Shown here: one piece after another, positions 3,517 to 17,387 of the stretch | Layout of the letters: the number at the start of each line of letters is the position of its first letter | How positions within the stretch are numbered: the first letter of the stretch is position 1 | Virus record (IMG/VR): IMGVR_UViG_2529293061_000007 | Source of the DNA: a virus | Taxonomy: Duplodnaviria > Heunggongvirae > Uroviricota > Caudoviricetes | Reading direction: 5' to 3' (one strand) | Length of the DNA stretch: 35,846 nt | Position numbers and translations under genes: made by a program | Notes under the pieces: generated by a model | Database searches by the model: none | The model's input: only the letters and a program-made list of their open reading frames with translations | Told to the model about the DNA's origin: nothing

Positions 3517-4043
3517 TTGCGTAACTCCGATAACTCGTTAAAGCGTTCCATAAACATCCCGTAGGCATGGCCCGGTGCCAGTGGAATCACGTTGAACATC
3601 TCTGTTGCCGGGATACCTTCCAGTACAGGCCAGAAAGAGCCATCATCAAGCCCGAGATCGCGGCGTTCGGTTGCCAGCATGATGAGATCGGCATATTTCA
3701 CGGGCGTACTCATAACTGGGGGTAACCCGTATTTCTCACGGATTACGGCGTCTATTTTTTCTTCCATTTGTTTATAGTCAGGAAGAAGGCGTTTCAGTGG
3801 TGCGGGAATGTCCTGGCAATACGCTTCTGTTGCATCATGCATTAACGCTTCAAAAGCAAATTCCTGCGGCACCAGCTGGCTGCAAAGAACCGCATGTTGG
3901 GCGACGCTGTAGAAGTGCGAAAGATGACCGGCAAAGCGACAGATATTTGAAAGGGAAACCGCGATATCGTTAATATCGATGTCGTCTTTATTTATCCTGT
4001 CATAATAAAAATGCTTCCCGGAAAAAGTTTTAATAAATGACAT
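3507..4043 (-). CDS. HD-domain phosphohydrolase (YfdR-like 5'-deoxynucleotidase family)
   Basis: His/Asp metal-binding motifs (...FAGHLSHFYSVAQHAV...LMHDATEAY...); likely start is ATG at 4041-4043 with GTGGAG RBS rather than the upstream GTG at 4070. Confidence 0.7.
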   Translation of the reverse strand: MSFIKTFSGKHFYYDRINKDDIDINDIAVSLSNICRFAGHLSHFYSVAQHAVLCSQLVPQEFAFEALMHDATEAYCQDIPAPLKRLLPDYKQMEEKIDAVIREKYGLPPVMSTPVKYADLIMLATERRDLGLDDGSFWPVLEGIPATEMFNVIPLAPGHAYGMFMERFNELSELRKCA

Positions 4044-4170: not shown

Positions 4171-4995
4171 TCAGGCGGTGAAAGTACCAATAAAGGTTTC
4201 TACTTTGCTGTCCTTGAATTTCTCAACAAGCAGATCACGAAATTCGTTAGCCATTTCTTCCTGCACCGCCTCCAGCTGAATAATGCGCAGAACCAGTACC
4301 GGACGATCGCCAGTGATAATGCTGAGGCGTAATTTAAACGGACGTTCTTTCAGACCTTCAAACGGAATGCATTTAAATTCAAATGCCACTGGCATAATGT
4401 CTTTGGTCTTCGCTTCGACAGACTCCATCAGGGAGCGTTTGCCGCTGAAGTCATTATCTTCAAAATCAGCGGTCTGGTTTGCTTCAATCGTGATTTTACG
4501 GACCGCCGCAGCCGCTTTTGTTGCCTGAATGGTGTCACCATTAGCATCAAAGCCCACAAGGTAGTCGGCCCAGTCTTCAATCCATTCTGCCAGTGATTTC
4601 TGGGAGTTACGCTCGCCATTAACAGACAACAGAGCAGAGAACGGTGCTGTCTTTTTCAGTTTGAGAGTGGCGGTGTTATCTGCGTGACCTGGTTCATCAA
4701 TAGTACCCAGGTTAAGCACACTGACGGCACGCATATTATCAGCATCGATAAAGCAGCGGGTGCCTTCATCTGCAAGATCTTTAGAATAACGGGTAAAGTC
4801 ATCGATGCTGGCAGTGGAAAGCGCACCACGGAAACGGAAGCGATTTAAATTAAATTTTTCCAGATCATGAATGCGGAAATTCTCAGGCAATGCCACAGCA
4901 TCGGCACCAATCTTACTGATAATTTCATTAACACCCTGAGCAGAAATAAGGGCATGGATTTGATTAATTGCGGTTGCGTCTAAGTTCTGAGACAT
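4171..4995 (-). CDS. DUF2303-family protein (YfdQ-like)
   Basis: 274-aa ORF; translation recalled as YfdQ-like; typical coding composition. Confidence 0.65.
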
Positions 4996-8403: not shown

Positions 8404-9345
8404 ATGAGCACTAAATTAACCGGCTATGTATGGGATGGTTGCGCTGCATCAGGCATGAAATTATCCAGCGTGGCAATTATGGCCCGCCTGGCTGATTTCA
8501 GTAATGACGAAGGTGTGTGCTGGCCATCAATTGAAACCATTGCCCGCCAGATTGGCGCGGGAATGAGTACCGTCAGAACGGCTATCGCACGGCTGGAAGC
8601 AGAAGGCTGGTTAACGCGTAAGGCGCGTCGCCAGGGTAACCGCAATGCGTCGAATGTTTATCAGCTTAACGTTGCGAAGCTTCAGGCAGCGGCATTTTCT
8701 CAACTGTCAGATTCTGACCCGTCAAAATCTGACGCATCAAAATCTGACCCGTCAAAATTTGATGCGTCGAAATCTGGCAAAAAAGCGGGTTTTCACCCGT
8801 CAGAATCTGGCGGGGATCCGTCAGTAAAATCAAAACATGATCCGTCAGATAAAAAAACTTCTCGTCCGGACGCTTCGCAACCGGACACGCAGACGGCTGA
8901 ACAGGAGTTTTTAACTCGCCATCCTGATGCGGTTGTATTCAGCCCTAAAAAGCGCCAGTGGGGAACGCAGGGTGATTTGACCTGCGCACAGTGGCTCTGG
9001 AAAAAAATCATCGCCCTGTACGAGCAGGCCGCCGAATGTGACGGCGAGGTGGTTCGTCCCAAAGAACCGAACTGGACAGCCTGGGCAAACGAAATTCGCC
9101 TGATGTGTGTGCAGGATGGTCGTACTCATAAACAAATCTGCGAGATGTACAGCCGCGTCAGTCGCGATCCGTTCTGGTGCCGTAACGTGCTCAGCCCGTC
9201 GAAGCTGCGGGAAAAATGGGATGAGCTTTCCCTGCGCTTATCGCCGTCCGTCAGCACGTACACCGAAAAACGCGAAGACCCGTACTTCAAAGCCAGTTAC
9301 GACAACGTGGACTACAGCCAGATCCCGGCAGGATTCAGGGGGTGA
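8404..9345 (+). CDS. phage replication initiation protein (O-like, N-terminal HTH) with iteron-containing linker
   Basis: 313-aa ORF; N-terminal HTH-like region; central SDPSK/SDASK repeats encoded by tandem DNA repeats; sits at the lambda O position. Confidence 0.7.
   Translation: MSTKLTGYVWDGCAASGMKLSSVAIMARLADFSNDEGVCWPSIETIARQIGAGMSTVRTAIARLEAEGWLTRKARRQGNRNASNVYQLNVAKLQAAAFSQLSDSDPSKSDASKSDPSKFDASKSGKKAGFHPSESGGDPSVKSKHDPSDKKTSRPDASQPDTQTAEQEFLTRHPDAVVFSPKKRQWGTQGDLTCAQWLWKKIIALYEQAAECDGEVVRPKEPNWTAWANEIRLMCVQDGRTHKQICEMYSRVSRDPFWCRNVLSPSKLREKWDELSLRLSPSVSTYTEKREDPYFKASYDNVDYSQIPAGFRG
8705..8850 (+). repeat. tandem iterons (probable phage origin of replication) inside the O-like gene
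   Basis: Four tandem 15-bp units TCTGACCCGTCAAAA / TCTGACGCATCAAAA / TCTGACCCGTCAAAA / TTTGATGCGTCGAAA (8713-8772), further CCGTCAG motifs, then an A-rich tract GATAAAAAAA. Confidence 0.65.
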
Positions 9346-13025: not shown

Positions 13026-13778
13026 ATGAACCTTGAAGCTTTACCAAAATATTACTCCCCAAAATCTCCAAAATTGAGTGATGACGCACCGGCGACAGGC
13101 TCGGGTGGTTTAACAATTACAGATGTGATGGCTGCGCAGGGGATGGTGCAGTCGAAAGCACCGCTTGGGTTTGCCTTATTCCTGGCAAAAGTTGGTGTTC
13201 AGGATCCTCAGTTTGCGATTGAAGGTCTGCTCAATTACGCGATGGGACTGGATAACCCGACATTGAACAAATTGAGTGAAGAAATCCGGTTACAGATCAT
13301 CCCTTACCTTGTGAATTTTGCCTTTGCTGATTATTCCAGGTCTGCGGCAAGTAAGGCTCGCTGTGAGCATTGTGCTGGTACTGGATTTCATAATGTATTG
13401 CGCGAGGTGGTGAAACACTCCAGAAGCGGGGAATCTGTTATCAAGGAAGAGTGGGTGAAGGAACTATGTCAGCATTGTCATGGTAAGGGAGAAGTCAGCA
13501 CAGCGTGCAGAGGGTGTAAGGGTAAAGGTATTGTCCTGGATGAAAAAAGGACCCGGCTTCATGGCACGCCTGTTTATAAGATTTGTGGGCGTTGCAATGG
13601 AAACCGATTTAGCCGTTTACCAACCACACTGGCGCGGAATCATGTCCAGAAGCTGGTACCAGACCTGACGGATTATCAGTGGTACAAAGGATATGCAGAT
13701 GTCATTGATAAACTGGTTACAAAGTGCTGGCAGGAAGAAGCATATGCAGAGACACAATTGAGAAAGGTGACAAGATAA
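13026..13778 (+). CDS. late-gene antitermination protein Q
   Basis: Cys-rich zinc-binding segment (CEHCAGTG...CQHCHGKG...CRGCKGKG...CGRCNG); immediately upstream of the lysis region; GGAG RBS. Confidence 0.8.
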   Translation: MNLEALPKYYSPKSPKLSDDAPATGSGGLTITDVMAAQGMVQSKAPLGFALFLAKVGVQDPQFAIEGLLNYAMGLDNPTLNKLSEEIRLQIIPYLVNFAFADYSRSAASKARCEHCAGTGFHNVLREVVKHSRSGESVIKEEWVKELCQHCHGKGEVSTACRGCKGKGIVLDEKRTRLHGTPVYKICGRCNGNRFSRLPTTLARNHVQKLVPDLTDYQWYKGYADVIDKLVTKCWQEEAYAETQLRKVTR

Positions 13779-13838: not shown

Positions 13839-13980
13839 TTTCTCAACGATGGGCTTTATGTATCTGCTGTTGATAACCTTCAAGAACTCGCCATTGAGCG
13901 GGTTTTTTATTGTGTAAAAACAGAATGACGGTATTAATTAGTAATATAATTATTCGACCATACAACTAGGGGTCGAAAAA

Positions 13981-14766
13981 ATGTATGTTTTTGAGTTAAT
14001 CAAGCCAGGCAGTAATCTTAAGTTTGAAAACAGAGAGTTAGAATGGACGTTTAATAACTTATTATCCCATTTAGAAACTGCATTTTATGATGCTAATGTA
14101 GCATTAAATTTATTCGAACAGGAAAGAACTAAGAATAACAGTAAATTCGATAATATTTCTCAGACATGGCAAGCTGATGTACAGAAACGACAAGCACTGG
14201 AAATGCTGGTTCGTAAAGAGTTTGGTTATCAACCTTATGAATATTCAGAACAGGTTTTTTCAGAGGTCGAGCTACGTCTAAAAAGAGAAAAATGGAATAA
14301 CGGTGAATATCCGTTGGCTCATCAACACAGATTGATCTTCTTACATGCAAAATCATTTCTCTACGCTTTGGATGCTATTGATAAATTTTTAAAGGTAATT
14401 TCAAAAGAAAATGGCGCGCCAGAGAACATTAAAAAATTGCATGAACAGCTTTCTAAAGACTTTCCGGATTTAAGAAAGGTAAGGAATTCAGCTCAACACA
14501 TGGAAGACAGAGTTCGTGGGCTTGGTGCAGAGAAAGAACCAAAGCCAATAAAACTCAAACCTGTAAATAATATTCATGTTGTTGCACCTCAGGGGGCATT
14601 GATGTTGAATAACTTATTCGGAACTAAATTTGGGTGCACTATGGCTGATGGCTATTATGGTGAAGTAGATATTTCGACAGAGTCTTTGGCAAAGTTGCAA
14701 AATTTAATCCAAAAAGTTTTTAATTCCTTCAGTTGGGAAGGACCAAAGCAACACCTTCCTCGATAA
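13981..14766 (+). CDS. AT-rich moron protein (261 aa) with two Rx4H motifs; candidate HEPN-type ribonuclease / Abi protein
   Basis: Visibly AT-rich codon usage versus flanks; motifs RLIFLH and RNSAQH; sits between Q and the holin (the stx position of Stx phages); terminator follows. Confidence 0.6.
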   Translation: MYVFELIKPGSNLKFENRELEWTFNNLLSHLETAFYDANVALNLFEQERTKNNSKFDNISQTWQADVQKRQALEMLVRKEFGYQPYEYSEQVFSEVELRLKREKWNNGEYPLAHQHRLIFLHAKSFLYALDAIDKFLKVISKENGAPENIKKLHEQLSKDFPDLRKVRNSAQHMEDRVRGLGAEKEPKPIKLKPVNNIHVVAPQGALMLNNLFGTKFGCTMADGYYGEVDISTESLAKLQNLIQKVFNSFSWEGPKQHLPR

Positions 14767-14783
14767 CATTTTCTTTTTTATTG

Positions 14784-14815
14784 AAAGCCGCCAAATAATT
14801 GGCGGCTTTTTTATT
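14784..14815 (+). terminator. intrinsic terminator after the Q-S moron
   Basis: Stem AAAGCCGCCAA / TTGGCGGCTTT with loop ATAA followed by a T-tract. Confidence 0.7.
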
Positions 14816-15185: not shown

Positions 15186-15662
15186 ATGCAGGCTCTAAAT
15201 TCCCAGCGTAAAGCTTTCCTTGATATGGTGGCATGGTCAGAAGGAACGGATAACGGGCGACAACCGACACGTAACCACGGTTATGATGTTATTGTTGGTG
15301 GCGAACTGTTCACTGATTACTCCGATCACCCTCGCAAACTTGTCACGCTAAACCCCAAACTCAAATCAACAGCCGCCGGGCGTTATCAGCTTCTTTCACG
15401 CTGGTGGGATGCTTACCGTAAACAGCTTGGTTTGAAAGACTTCTCCCCCAAAAGCCAGGACGCAGTGGCATTGCAGCAGATTAAAGAGCGTGGCGCTTTA
15501 GCGATGATTGATCGCGGTGATATTCGTCAGGCTATCGACCGTTGCAGCAATATCTGGGCTTCACTGCCGGGGGCTGGTTACGGTCAGTTCGAGCATAAGG
15601 CTGACAGCCTGATTGCAAAATTTAAAGAAGCTGGCGGAACGGTCAGAGAGATGGAGGCATGA
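15186..15662 (+). CDS. R: endolysin, lambda R-type lytic transglycosylase
   Basis: Translation near-identical over long stretches to lambda R as recalled (...[55 protein letters not shown]...). Confidence 0.95.
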
Positions 15663-16126
15663 GCAGAGTCACCGCGATTATCTCCGCTCTGGTTATCTGC
15701 ATCATCGTCTGCCTGTCATGGTCTGTTAATCATTACCGTGACAACGCCATCACCTATAAAGACCAGCGCGATAAAAAAGTCAGTGAGCTGCAGCTGGCGA
15801 CCGCCACCATTACTGACATGCAGCAGCGCCAGCGTGATGCTGATGCACTTGATGCTAAATACACGAAGGAGTTAGCTGATGCGAAAGCTGAAAATGATGC
15901 TCTTCGGCGCAAGCTTGATAATGGTGGTAGGGTGCTCGTCAAAGGCAGATGTCCAGTGCCAGCCACAACAAAAGCCTCCGGCACCGCCAGCGTGGGCAAT
16001 GATGCCACCGTCGAACTCTCTCCAATTGCTGGACGAAACCTTCTCGGTATCAGATCCGGAATTATCAGAGATCAAGCATCATTGAGAGCGTTACAGGAAT
16101 ATATTGACACTCAGTGTCGGAAGTAA
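15659..16126 (+). CDS. Rz: i-spanin Rz
   Basis: N-terminal TM anchor, coiled-coil periplasmic domain; ATGA-coupled to R. Confidence 0.85.
15879..16085 (+). CDS. Rz1: o-spanin Rz1 (lipoprotein, embedded in Rz in the +1 frame)
   Basis: [21 protein letters not shown] lipobox; Pro-rich mature part; AAGGAG RBS; wholly inside Rz. Confidence 0.75.
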
Positions 16127-16192
16127 ACTCTTTTGCTGGAATAAATAGTTATTGCGAATAGGTGCTGCTAAATGTTGGTCGCTTGTGTAAAA

Positions 16193-16226
16193 TATAGTGG
16201 TAAGGTGTCTTTTTTATAGTGGTAAG
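16193..16226 (+). repeat. 12-bp direct repeat TATAGTGGTAAG (x2) just upstream of the post-lysis moron
   Basis: Copies at 16193-16204 and 16215-16226, separated by 10 bp; each contains a -10-like TATAGT. Confidence 0.6.
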
Positions 16227-16231
16227 TACGC

Positions 16232-16840
16232 ATGGACTATTTTTACATAGCAACTAAATCGCAAAATCCTTGGGTTAAGTATAGGCCTTTGGCAGTAGGA
16301 GATTTAGCTAGCACCTCATTCCCAAATCCCTTTTTTAATTATTTCTTAAGTTCAAACATCCCTCCAATACCAGTAAATGTTAACGGGCATCTAACTGACT
16401 ATACGAGAATGCAGTGGCTTTATGGCCTAAAGACAGGGTCACTTACTACTAAGTGTTCTGTACAAGATATAGCGGCAGTTGGTCAAGAATTGGCTATGCA
16501 TTTTTGTAAATATACTAGAGAACTGATTTGGGAAGCCGTTCGAGTTGAATGTTACCCAAAAAAGCCTTCAAGACAGAAATGCTTATGGGTTTCACAAGGT
16601 GAAGAAAGTCTTCACTATTGGATTTCGCAGTTGGGATTGGGGGACAATCAGACTGTGTTCAGAGTTGAGTTGGATGGAGTTATACATGAGGCGAGTGATG
16701 AACATTTGATGAATGACGATATACCGTATGATATTGCCTTAGAAAAAGCTCATAAATATTGGAGTGGTGAAATAGTTGATCCGTTAAAAAAGGAAATACT
16801 TTTTGAAGGAAATATGCGGATTCTAGAGCACATTTTATAG
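16232..16840 (+). CDS. AT-rich moron protein (202 aa), function unknown
   Basis: Located after Rz/Rz1 (the lambda bor-region equivalent); AT-rich; terminator-like element follows; no family recognised. Confidence 0.55.
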   Translation: MDYFYIATKSQNPWVKYRPLAVGDLASTSFPNPFFNYFLSSNIPPIPVNVNGHLTDYTRMQWLYGLKTGSLTTKCSVQDIAAVGQELAMHFCKYTRELIWEAVRVECYPKKPSRQKCLWVSQGEESLHYWISQLGLGDNQTVFRVELDGVIHEASDEHLMNDDIPYDIALEKAHKYWSGEIVDPLKKEILFEGNMRILEHIL

Positions 16841-16841
16841 C

Positions 16842-16860
16842 CGCCTTCTGGCGTTTTTTG
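16842..16860 (+). terminator. candidate intrinsic terminator after the post-lysis moron
   Basis: Short GC stem CGCC/GGCG with loop TTCT followed by TTTTTTG. Confidence 0.4.
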
Positions 16861-16911
16861 TTGCCATCACCATGGACAAACATCATCGTGATGATTGCAG
16901 GAAAACTTTAA

Positions 16912-17262
16912 ATGCCACCACGAACCCCAAAAGCCTGCCGTGTTCGCGGCTGCCGCAATACCACGACTGACCCGTCAGGCTACTGCGAAAGCCACAAAAG
17001 CGAAGGCTGGAAGCAATACAAGCCAGGACAATCCCGTCATCAGCGCGGTTATGGTTCGAAATGGGATGTTATCCGTGAACGTGTGCTCAAGCGTGACAAA
17101 GGCCTGTGTCAGTTATGTCGGCGTGCTGGTGTGGTGCGTGAGGCGAAGACCGTTGACCACATCATCCCTAAATCGCATGGCGGCACTGATGTCGACAGTA
17201 ATCTGCAGAGTTTGTGCTGGCCGTGTCATAAGGCGAAGACGGCCCGTGAACGGCTGAAGTAA
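16912..17262 (+). CDS. HNH endonuclease (packaging-associated)
   Basis: Cys/His-rich ...CQLCRRAG...VDHIIPKSHGGTDVDSNLQSLCWPCHKAK...; immediately upstream of terminase genes as in HK97-like phages. Confidence 0.85.
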   Translation: MPPRTPKACRVRGCRNTTTDPSGYCESHKSEGWKQYKPGQSRHQRGYGSKWDVIRERVLKRDKGLCQLCRRAGVVREAKTVDHIIPKSHGGTDVDSNLQSLCWPCHKAKTARERLK

Positions 17263-17387
17263 GAACCAGTTCCCACTGCCAGAGGGGAGGGGCGGGTCAA
17301 ATCCCTGTGACCTGACGTCTTCCGGACTGCCCGCCCCATCGTTTTTTTATACCCGCGAAAAATGAAATTTAACCAGGAGTGCCGCAT
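17263..17387. other. candidate cos / packaging-site region
   Basis: Intergenic segment between HNH and TerS with GC-rich inverted repeat GGGGCGGG...CCCGCCCC and a T-tract; by analogy with HK97-like genomes. Not directly demonstrable. Confidence 0.3.

Follow-up and report, generated by a model that had tools for sequence, protein, structure and literature searches.

A probable ADP-ribosyltransferase-fold DUF2441 gene in the post-lysis cargo slot of a lambdoid prophage

Introduction

Which protein is encoded by the gene that a lambdoid prophage carries after its lysis cassette and ahead of its packaging genes, and is the gene expressed from the repressed prophage or together with the late genes? 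The question is raised by a 202-aa open reading frame (ORF) in the IMG/VR virus record IMGVR_UViG_2529293061_000007 (Caudoviricetes), the whole 35,846 nucleotides of which are referred to as the window. A sequence-only reading of the window had taken this ORF for an orphan moron with a promoter, a pair of direct repeats and a terminator of its own, expressed autonomously and probably during lysogeny. In the present analysis the coding sequence, which occupies positions 16232-16840 of the + strand (ATG start, TAG stop), was compared with protein families, structures, homologous loci and the borders of the slot in which it resides. Judged by these comparisons, the product is very probably a member of the DUF2441/BC2332-like family with an ADP-ribosyltransferase (ART) fold, encoded in a post-lysis cargo slot. 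The locus as a whole is best explained, with a probability of roughly 0.6, as mobile cargo of the late operon whose product would be an ART-fold protein that binds nicotinamide adenine dinucleotide (NAD+) and is used in conflict.

Results

Family and fold of the encoded protein

The protein matched Pfam DUF2441 (PF10386) over residues 90-179 with 40.9 bits against a gathering cut-off of 25 (E = 2.6e-10) and PHROG 9842 from end to end (2.5e-132), and in RefSeq it bears the name DUF2441 domain-containing protein. The structure 2AUA of the Protein Data Bank (PDB), which is B. cereus BC2332, was matched by the single sequence at E = 4.5e-9 and by a profile of 105 family members at E = 4.2e-33 over the full length. 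The remote homology and structure searches thus place the protein in DUF2441 with the ART-fold relative BC2332, so the gene, which had been called unrecognised, is not an orphan. DUF2441 is assigned by Pfam to the ART clan, and SCOP classifies the BC2332-like fold as d.166.1.6 within the ADP-ribosylation superfamily. In the structure-based ProFunc analysis, the site of BC2332 was equated with the active site of diphtheria toxin (DT). The family comprises 1426 clusters at 50% identity (E <= 1e-3). The fold search against BFVD returned uncharacterised phage proteins only, and no match for the gene or its leader was found in NCBIfam and Rfam.

The near-invariant positions of the family are N32, R96, E97, E101, R104, P112-S113-R114, W119, W130, Y176-W177, E188 and G193, and every one of them is retained in the window protein. 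E188, which is conserved at 99%, is placed where the last beta-hairpin begins, as would suit the catalytic Glu. The ratio of nonsynonymous to synonymous substitutions (dN/dS) against the 78%-identical homologs was determined to be 0.07-0.09, with synonymous sites close to saturation, which indicates a functional gene. A chance ORF was rejected on this ratio together with the conservation of the family. The product is predicted to be soluble, with a mass of 23.4 kDa, an isoelectric point of 5.6 and a maximum Kyte-Doolittle value of 0.52; no signal peptide, transmembrane or hydrophobic segment was predicted in the 202 residues.

Position of the gene in the prophage

The ORF directly follows Rz/Rz1, as had been reported. 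The Rz spanin gene (15659-16126, +) is the left neighbour and closes the lysis cassette, with Rz1 (15879-16085, +) embedded within it. On the right, an HNH endonuclease gene (16912-17262, +) opens the packaging module, which consists of HNH, P27-type small terminase (TerS) and large terminase (TerL) genes. The AT-richness of the gene was confirmed as well: the G+C content was 0.38 in the gene and 0.37-0.41 over 16050-16950, compared with about 0.50-0.58 in the flanks. In base composition the DUF2441 gene is thus alien to the phage. A prophage of E. coli JE86-ST05, inserted beside tRNA-Thr and proA, matches the window with 100% identity; the late region is SfI/SfV-like. The SfI-like relatives hold different genes between Rz and HNH, coding for 124 aa in SfI, 168 aa in vB_EcoM-689R6 and 50 aa in MS21324. 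The moron or cargo reading is upheld by this variable slot, by the different genes found there in the relatives and by the foreign composition, and the view that 16232-16840 is horizontally acquired mobile cargo in a variable slot is supported.

Within E. coli, the gene was present in 50 of 5426 complete genomes (about 1%), every copy being at least 99% identical, and several of the gene-bearing strains carry the label ST131. Two E. coli copies from the group of 99.5-99.6% identity, L183 and L184 (the compared loci are denoted by L numbers), differ from the window by 16180 C>T, located in the -35-like TTGGTC of the leader, and by C107Y (16551). The window copy agrees with both JE86 strains. 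The 12-bp repeats of the leader are unchanged between these two E. coli copies.

Homologs and their genomic contexts

Homologs with 41-78% identity were found between the spanin and packaging genes of at least 12 unrelated lambdoid lineages, always on the strand of the late operon. The post-spanin, pre-packaging position on the same strand was determined for L004, L006, L013, L016, L019, L020, L023 (= phiES15), L029, L056 and L058; the exception is L017, in which the gene lies between Q and the endolysin gene. The phages that carry the homologs differ in lysis, with GH19, lambda-type or T4-type lysozymes and with differing holins and spanins, and also in packaging (Nu1/gpA, Hendrixvirinae TerS, P22-like TerS, Mu_F-type). 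The distance from the spanin stop to the start of the gene ranges from 27 to 233 nt across the lineages; the window has 105 nt, and some lineages reach 210-233 nt. The shortest gaps, 27-34 nt, were detected in L019, L020 and the L023/phiES15 type (39 nt to the start annotated in phiES15, a UV-inducible phage). Across 14 phage lineages, islands and distant genomes no conserved neighbour gene was found, and at the loci examined no antitoxin, immunity or B-subunit candidate stood beside the gene. An ART toxin-antitoxin module of the DarTG, ParST or Xre-RES/MbcTA kind was rejected on the lack of a conserved adjacent antitoxin or immunity gene.

Intact copies also occur in remnants of prophages and in islands. 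In L057 the gene is kept in a decayed prophage beside the trp operon, with a truncated endolysin gene and no packaging genes, and in L060 the prophage is broken off immediately after the gene. A Phytobacter island carries an intact copy between an integrase fragment and SymE. In Citrobacter sp. ANG330 (L030 3493-6609), a 44%-identical homolog lies directly 3' of the genes for a 469-aa AAA_15/AAA_21 ATPase and a 240-aa protein with no match in Pfam; this locus, which is outside a recognisable prophage, may be a defence island. The distant members of the family (Bacillota, Bacteroidota, Nitrospira and others) are encoded by solitary chromosomal genes whose surroundings are unrelated. The intact copies in dead prophages and islands argue for a benefit to the cell.

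Two further observations concern the surroundings of the homologs. The sequence ACAAAGTGTGGCAGGTGAACTGCC is conserved about 100 nt 5' of the DUF2441 start (L004 5880-5903, L006 5870-5893, L013 5882-5905, L057 ~4865-4895); it resembles the 3' end of Rz in the window (ACTCAGTGTCGGAAGTAAACTC) and is probably a relic Rz 3' end from the recombination that moved the cassette. In phiES15 (L055 970-2489), a Ser/Thr kinase and a PP2C phosphatase are encoded between Q and the lysis genes, so that the other slot of the late operon holds enzymatic cargo as well.

Terminator and right border of the slot

The stop codon is followed by a GC stem and T6 (CGCC-TTCT-GGCG, 16842-16859, +, with the stem arms at 16842-16845 and 16850-16853), which is described here as a decayed slot terminator. 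The hairpin has 4 bp and a folding energy of -6.6 kcal/mol (z = -1.3), and it was not called by the terminator scan. The neighbouring terminators are far stronger, with -11 kcal/mol at 13882-13907 and -18.7 kcal/mol at 14783-14810. In 8 lineages the stop codon is directly joined to AACCGCCnnnnGGCGGTT and a T-run, resulting in hairpins of 7-8 bp (CCACC/GGTGG in L056). The window hairpin is homologous to this element, with the 3' arm shorter by one base, and the terminator at the 3' end appears from this alignment to be an ancestral feature.

Behind the terminator, a diverged copy of a conserved box of about 37 nt (consensus TTATTGCCATCACCATGGGCAGACCCATCGTAATGGC) was located at 16858-16898 (+), where it forms the right-hand anchor of the slot. 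The scan of IMG/VR with the first 18 nt of the box resulted in at least 120 contigs (L063-L182), and in every contig listed the box follows a terminator hairpin, the stem sequence of which varies. Among the matches listed, the 75 ORFs that end just 5' of the box belong to at least 37 different clusters, and the sequence downstream of the box is varied; the box is preceded by same-strand lysis genes in 81 of 89 contigs and followed by packaging genes in 74 of 85. The box occurs also at L008 2895-2990 and L002 3468-3495, and it is present, unannotated, in the deposited phages CobraSix, Oslo and SKA5; it has no match in NCBIfam and is absent from Rfam. It is an imperfect inverted repeat with a variable 4-nt centre. 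RNAalifold gave nothing useful on the box, and a proposed 12-pair hairpin reached 94% pairing compared with 94.5% in the shuffle control, the left arm being fixed by the search pattern.

The same terminator and box stand behind cargo of at least 37 unrelated families, and the terminator is accordingly a property of the slot and not of the gene. The gene had been credited with a terminator of its own, and the GC stem and T6 are indeed present after the stop, but the element is weak, uncalled and common to the slot. A strong private terminator was rejected for the same reasons. On the comparison of contigs, terminator and box together mark the right-hand border common to the highly variable cargo that lies between lysis and packaging genes. 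The slot upstream of the packaging module has been reported as a hotspot of morons and immunity genes (PMC11364771). One of the box-bearing contigs, L064, has two Rfam matches to the small RNA STnc100 on its minus strand (677-872 and 3723-3925), and the distance from one of these to the box downstream is about 400 nt; no STnc100 match was obtained in the window.

Repeats and promoter elements of the leader

The leader, from the Rz stop to the DUF2441 start (16127-16231, +), is AT-rich, and its proximal ~50 nt can be aligned with the leaders of the 78%-identical homologs. The 12-bp direct repeat TATAGTGGTAAG was found exactly where it had been described, at 16193-16204 and 16215-16226 (+), and there is no further copy in the window even when 2 mismatches are allowed. 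The pair is beyond chance, because the expectation for an exact 12-mer repeat within 40 nt is 0.048 per window, and such a repeat arose in 0.16% of simulated 105-nt leaders. The spacing of the copies is 22 nt, which is about two helical turns. The 3' half of copy 1 lies at the -10 position of the relatives, whereas copy 2 overlaps a weak Shine-Dalgarno sequence (GGTAAG, at 5 nt from the ATG) and corresponds in the alignment to GGAAG of L004 and L013.

At the two repeat places the 78%-identical lineages L004 and L013 read ATATGGTAT and AATTGGAAG. A conserved operator was rejected on the absence of the repeats from these two leaders, and the proposal that a regulator binds the repeats was not supported, as they are unconserved there and coincide with the -10 and Shine-Dalgarno positions. 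Since they coincide with -10 and ribosome-binding elements and differ in the 78%-identical lineages, the exact repeat is more plausibly a lineage-specific homogenisation of two already similar elements than a conserved operator.

Each copy begins with TATAGT, which had been pointed out as -10-like and agrees with TATAAT at 5 of 6 positions, but no usable -35 element lies at 16-18 nt from it. The best promoter total with the TATAGT of the repeats was 7-8/12, and the promoter scan called no + strand promoter in the leader. A weak, putative extended -10-like element, TGgTAAGGT (16198-16206, +), matches the position of TGgTATCGT in L004, TGtTATTGT in L013 and TATACT in L006. The nearest -35-like hexamer, TTGGTC (16175-16180), is 20 nt off this element and out of range. 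In the relatives, a sigma-70-like promoter with a score of 8-10 has its -10 ending 26-30 nt before the ATG. The elements are TTAACA-17-TATACT in L006 (10/12, called by the scan), TTGCGA-16-TGg-TATCGT in L004, TTGCTA-16-TGt-TATTGT in L013 and TTCAAA-16-TATGAT in L058 (score 9 each), and TTCACT-17-TAAAGT in L060. At this ancestral position the window scored 6 (p = 0.43), the weakest value of the set, and the combined Fisher p of the relatives was 0.003; these p-values are optimistic, as the zone was picked after viewing the data and the leaders are AT-rich.

Other features of the window

A second AT-rich cargo gene was located at 13981-14766, between the Q-proximal terminator and the holin gene. 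Its 261-aa product matches PHROG 5322 over the full length, and no match was found in Pfam, PADLOC or NCBIfam. The gene is flanked by the two strong terminators at 13882-13907 and 14783-14810. Stx (Shiga toxin) phages carry stx in the slot that matches this position. Close, iteron-like direct repeats are present at 8713-8762 (TCTGACCCGTCAAAAT spaced 30 nt, plus an overlapping copy offset by 15 nt); they lie within a region annotated as a helix-turn-helix replication-type gene in the matching genome and are probably the phage origin. Between the HNH and small terminase genes, a long GC-rich hairpin (17289-17348, GGGGCGGG...CCCGCCCC) is followed by T7. This hairpin could be a terminator or a cos-region part of an HNH-dependent packaging system.

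Discussion

In lambdoid phages a single late operon starts at the Q-dependent promoter and takes in the lysis, packaging and structural genes. In the window, the Q gene (13026-13778) is followed by the terminator at 13882-13907. Before it arrives at the HNH and terminase genes, the polymerase antiterminated by Q must pass through the DUF2441 gene and the slot terminator, and from this layout late transcription of the gene together with the late operon can be expected with good confidence. Meaningful expression in the lysogen is the more doubtful half of the question and is judged somewhat less likely than not. The autonomous promoter-gene-terminator layout of the sequence-only reading survives only in part: the relatives have a promoter and the terminator is ancestral, but the window promoter is degenerate, the terminator is slot-wide and the gene is co-oriented with the late operon. 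No DUF2441 gene is contained in the lysogeny transcriptome of Owen et al.

The preferred explanation combines these results. The gene sits in the hypervariable slot that lambdoid enterobacterial phages have between their lysis and packaging genes, and Q-modified polymerase would run across it toward the HNH, terminase and structural genes. The weak cassette promoter (good in the relatives, degenerate in the window) may contribute a low level of expression in the lysogen, with the slot terminator stopping that transcript. The protein might bind NAD+ or a related nucleotide in a cleft composed of E188, the helix with R96/E97/E101/R104 and the PSR112-114 loop, and might then transfer ADP-ribose to a target, or otherwise process it, without killing the cell. 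The product would not be acutely toxic; its synthesis would take place late in infection at the least, and lysogens might contain a little of it. Its role would most likely lie in conflict between phage and host or between phages, either as counter-defence during lytic growth or as exclusion or resistance in the lysogen.

Several results weigh against this explanation. The first-strand His of the family (H5) is replaced with Tyr5 in the window protein, as in most of the enterobacterial clade. At this position, H was determined in 127 and Y in 20 of 158 members, almost all of the latter enterobacterial, and in a broader alignment H exceeds 90%. In the canonical H-Y-E ARTs the first-strand His contacts NAD+, so ART activity is not to be presumed here, and canonical NAD+ binding may be altered or lost. 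A true NAD+-dependent transferase seems possible rather than probable. In addition, the protein matched 0 families of PADLOC-DB v2 at E <= 1. The tblastn search of 50,697 deposited phage genomes resulted in Cronobacter phage phiES15 only (two records), to which no phenotype is attached. On DUF2441, BC2332 and 2AUA, the literature offered nothing beyond the fold classification and a single entry in an RNA-seq table, which concerns a DUF2441 gene of Salmonella. The promoter-like sites in these AT-rich leaders were not enriched over shuffles, and the optimistic p-values of the promoter position count on the same side.

The conflict role might be narrowed to either half of the phage life cycle. 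An autonomous moron, transcribed from its own promoter in the repressed prophage, with a regulator on the 12-bp repeats and a phage exclusion or fitness trait as its product, would explain the composition foreign to the phage, the sigma-70-like promoters that the relatives have at a constant distance from the ATG (10/12 in L006; score 9 in L004, L013 and L058), the terminator at the 3' end and the intact genes kept in the decayed prophages L057 and L060 and in islands. The non-random repeat with its 22-nt spacing and the reported immunity hotspot (PMC11364771) point in the same direction. Nevertheless, this explanation is rather unlikely. The window promoter is the poorest of the set and was not called by the scan; the repeats are missing in the 78%-identical lineages and, coinciding with the -10 and Shine-Dalgarno sequences, leave no separate operator; there is no PADLOC match, and the gap between spanin and gene is only 27-34 nt in three lineages. 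The gene is also co-oriented in all phage lineages, whereas the lysogen-expressed bor (textbook) and taiEcA (PMC11364771) are antisense. The same orientation, invariably right after the lysis genes, favours the opposite restriction, an enzyme of lytic growth only, translated from the Q-dependent transcript, which would act on a defence or housekeeping factor of the host by modifying it, in counter-defence or host takeover. T4 Alt, ModA and ModB and the ART-fold anti-CRISPR AcrIF11 are precedents for such an enzyme. The gaps of 27-34 nt in L019, L020 and L023/phiES15 leave no room for a separate promoter, and the lack of a partner or immunity gene would be tolerable in a cell soon to lyse; the co-oriented atiEcA of phi80 is itself a late counter-defence gene (PMC11364771). 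The lytic-only enzyme is, however, about equally unlikely, as members of the family stand alone in the chromosomes of many phyla with no phage context, intact copies persist in decayed prophages incapable of lytic growth, and promoter-like elements are conserved among the relatives. Besides, a product made so late could act only on the next host, if packaged.

The remaining alternatives concern the chemistry of the protein. A pseudoenzyme, which would be a catalytically dead ART fold that binds a partner or nucleotide and may overlap with the lytic or the lysogen role, could be likened to PARP13, in which a His-to-Tyr triad abolishes NAD+ binding. The other family-invariant polar residues (E188, R96, E97, E101, R104, S113, R114) are kept in the window protein, and H and Y have been swapped several times within a single clade on which purifying selection is otherwise strong. 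Such swaps suggest that the position tolerates both residues without loss of function, and the dead fold is judged improbable. A still smaller share falls to an Arr-type resistance enzyme, a lysogenic-conversion gene product that would ADP-ribosylate an antibiotic or toxin. Like arr, the DUF2441 genes are small, standalone and partnerless across many phyla, and they also occur on mobile elements; but the likeness is at the fold level only (16% identity over 90 residues), the family is linked to no compound, and the late operon is an unusual place for a resistance gene. The ART fold is also common to DT, pertussis toxin and heat-labile toxin, and the late-operon position would free an ADP-ribosylating exotoxin at lysis, as for Stx. 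This candidate, a secreted or lysis-released toxin comparable to Stx, cholera toxin, DT or ArtAB, was nonetheless rejected, with a negligible probability which it shares with the chance ORF: no signal peptide or hydrophobic segment, B subunit or translocation domain was found, and homologs occur in free-living environmental bacteria.

The gene, its family and the slot are already known from databases or the literature; on ARTs within prophage morons or hotspots, the literature gave nothing specific. What is new is descriptive: the recurrent post-spanin placement of the family, the His-to-Tyr clade, the apparently decayed promoter and terminator of the window copy, and the extent of the terminator-plus-box border. 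The gene is an ordinary example of a moron, and its regulation had been over-read. It is unlikely, though worth stating, that DUF2441 represents an unrecognised class of phage-borne NAD+-dependent conflict enzymes without an immunity gene, delivered through the hypervariable slot of the late operon, with Tyr-for-His chemistry in the enterobacterial prophage clade and with a border box that is itself a functional recombination or regulatory element. If the proposed reading is true, the enterobacterial Tyr-for-His replacement would imply altered chemistry or substrate, and an active ART would be an added enzyme among the NAD+-based mechanisms of conflict or resistance. The gene provides a tractable E. 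coli entry to DUF2441, a family of more than 1400 clusters with a crystal structure since 2005. The terminator-plus-box border can be used as a landmark for a systematic harvest of prophage cargo genes.

Comparison with known systems

The lambda bor gene is, like the DUF2441 gene, cargo immediately 3' of Rz/Rz1. It is expressed in the lysogen from the strand opposite to the late operon, and its product is a lipoprotein that has a signal peptide, whereas the DUF2441 gene is on the late strand and its product has no hydrophobic N-terminus and no Bor match in Pfam. A Bor-like lipoprotein was rejected on these three differences. BC2332 (2AUA) shares about 22% identity with the window protein and keeps the beta-1 His (YAYHI), in place of which the window protein has Tyr (DYFYI); the BC2332 gene is chromosomal, whereas the window gene is phage-borne. 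The Arr structures (PDB 2HW2, 9IAF) resemble the window protein at the level of the fold and are without the long conserved helix and the PSR loop of DUF2441. Other ART-fold proteins that travel on phages or mobile elements exert their effect through modification of a component of the host or of a rival.

The closest parallel in position is found in phi80, where taiEcA and atiEcA occupy the same lambdoid slot between lysis and packaging genes. The former is antisense to the late operon, is expressed constitutively in lysogens and blocks tail assembly, and the latter is its co-oriented, late counter-defence partner (PMC11364771). In contrast to taiEcA, which is antisense and has a partner, the DUF2441 gene is unrelated in sequence, stands without a partner and is co-oriented with the late operon.

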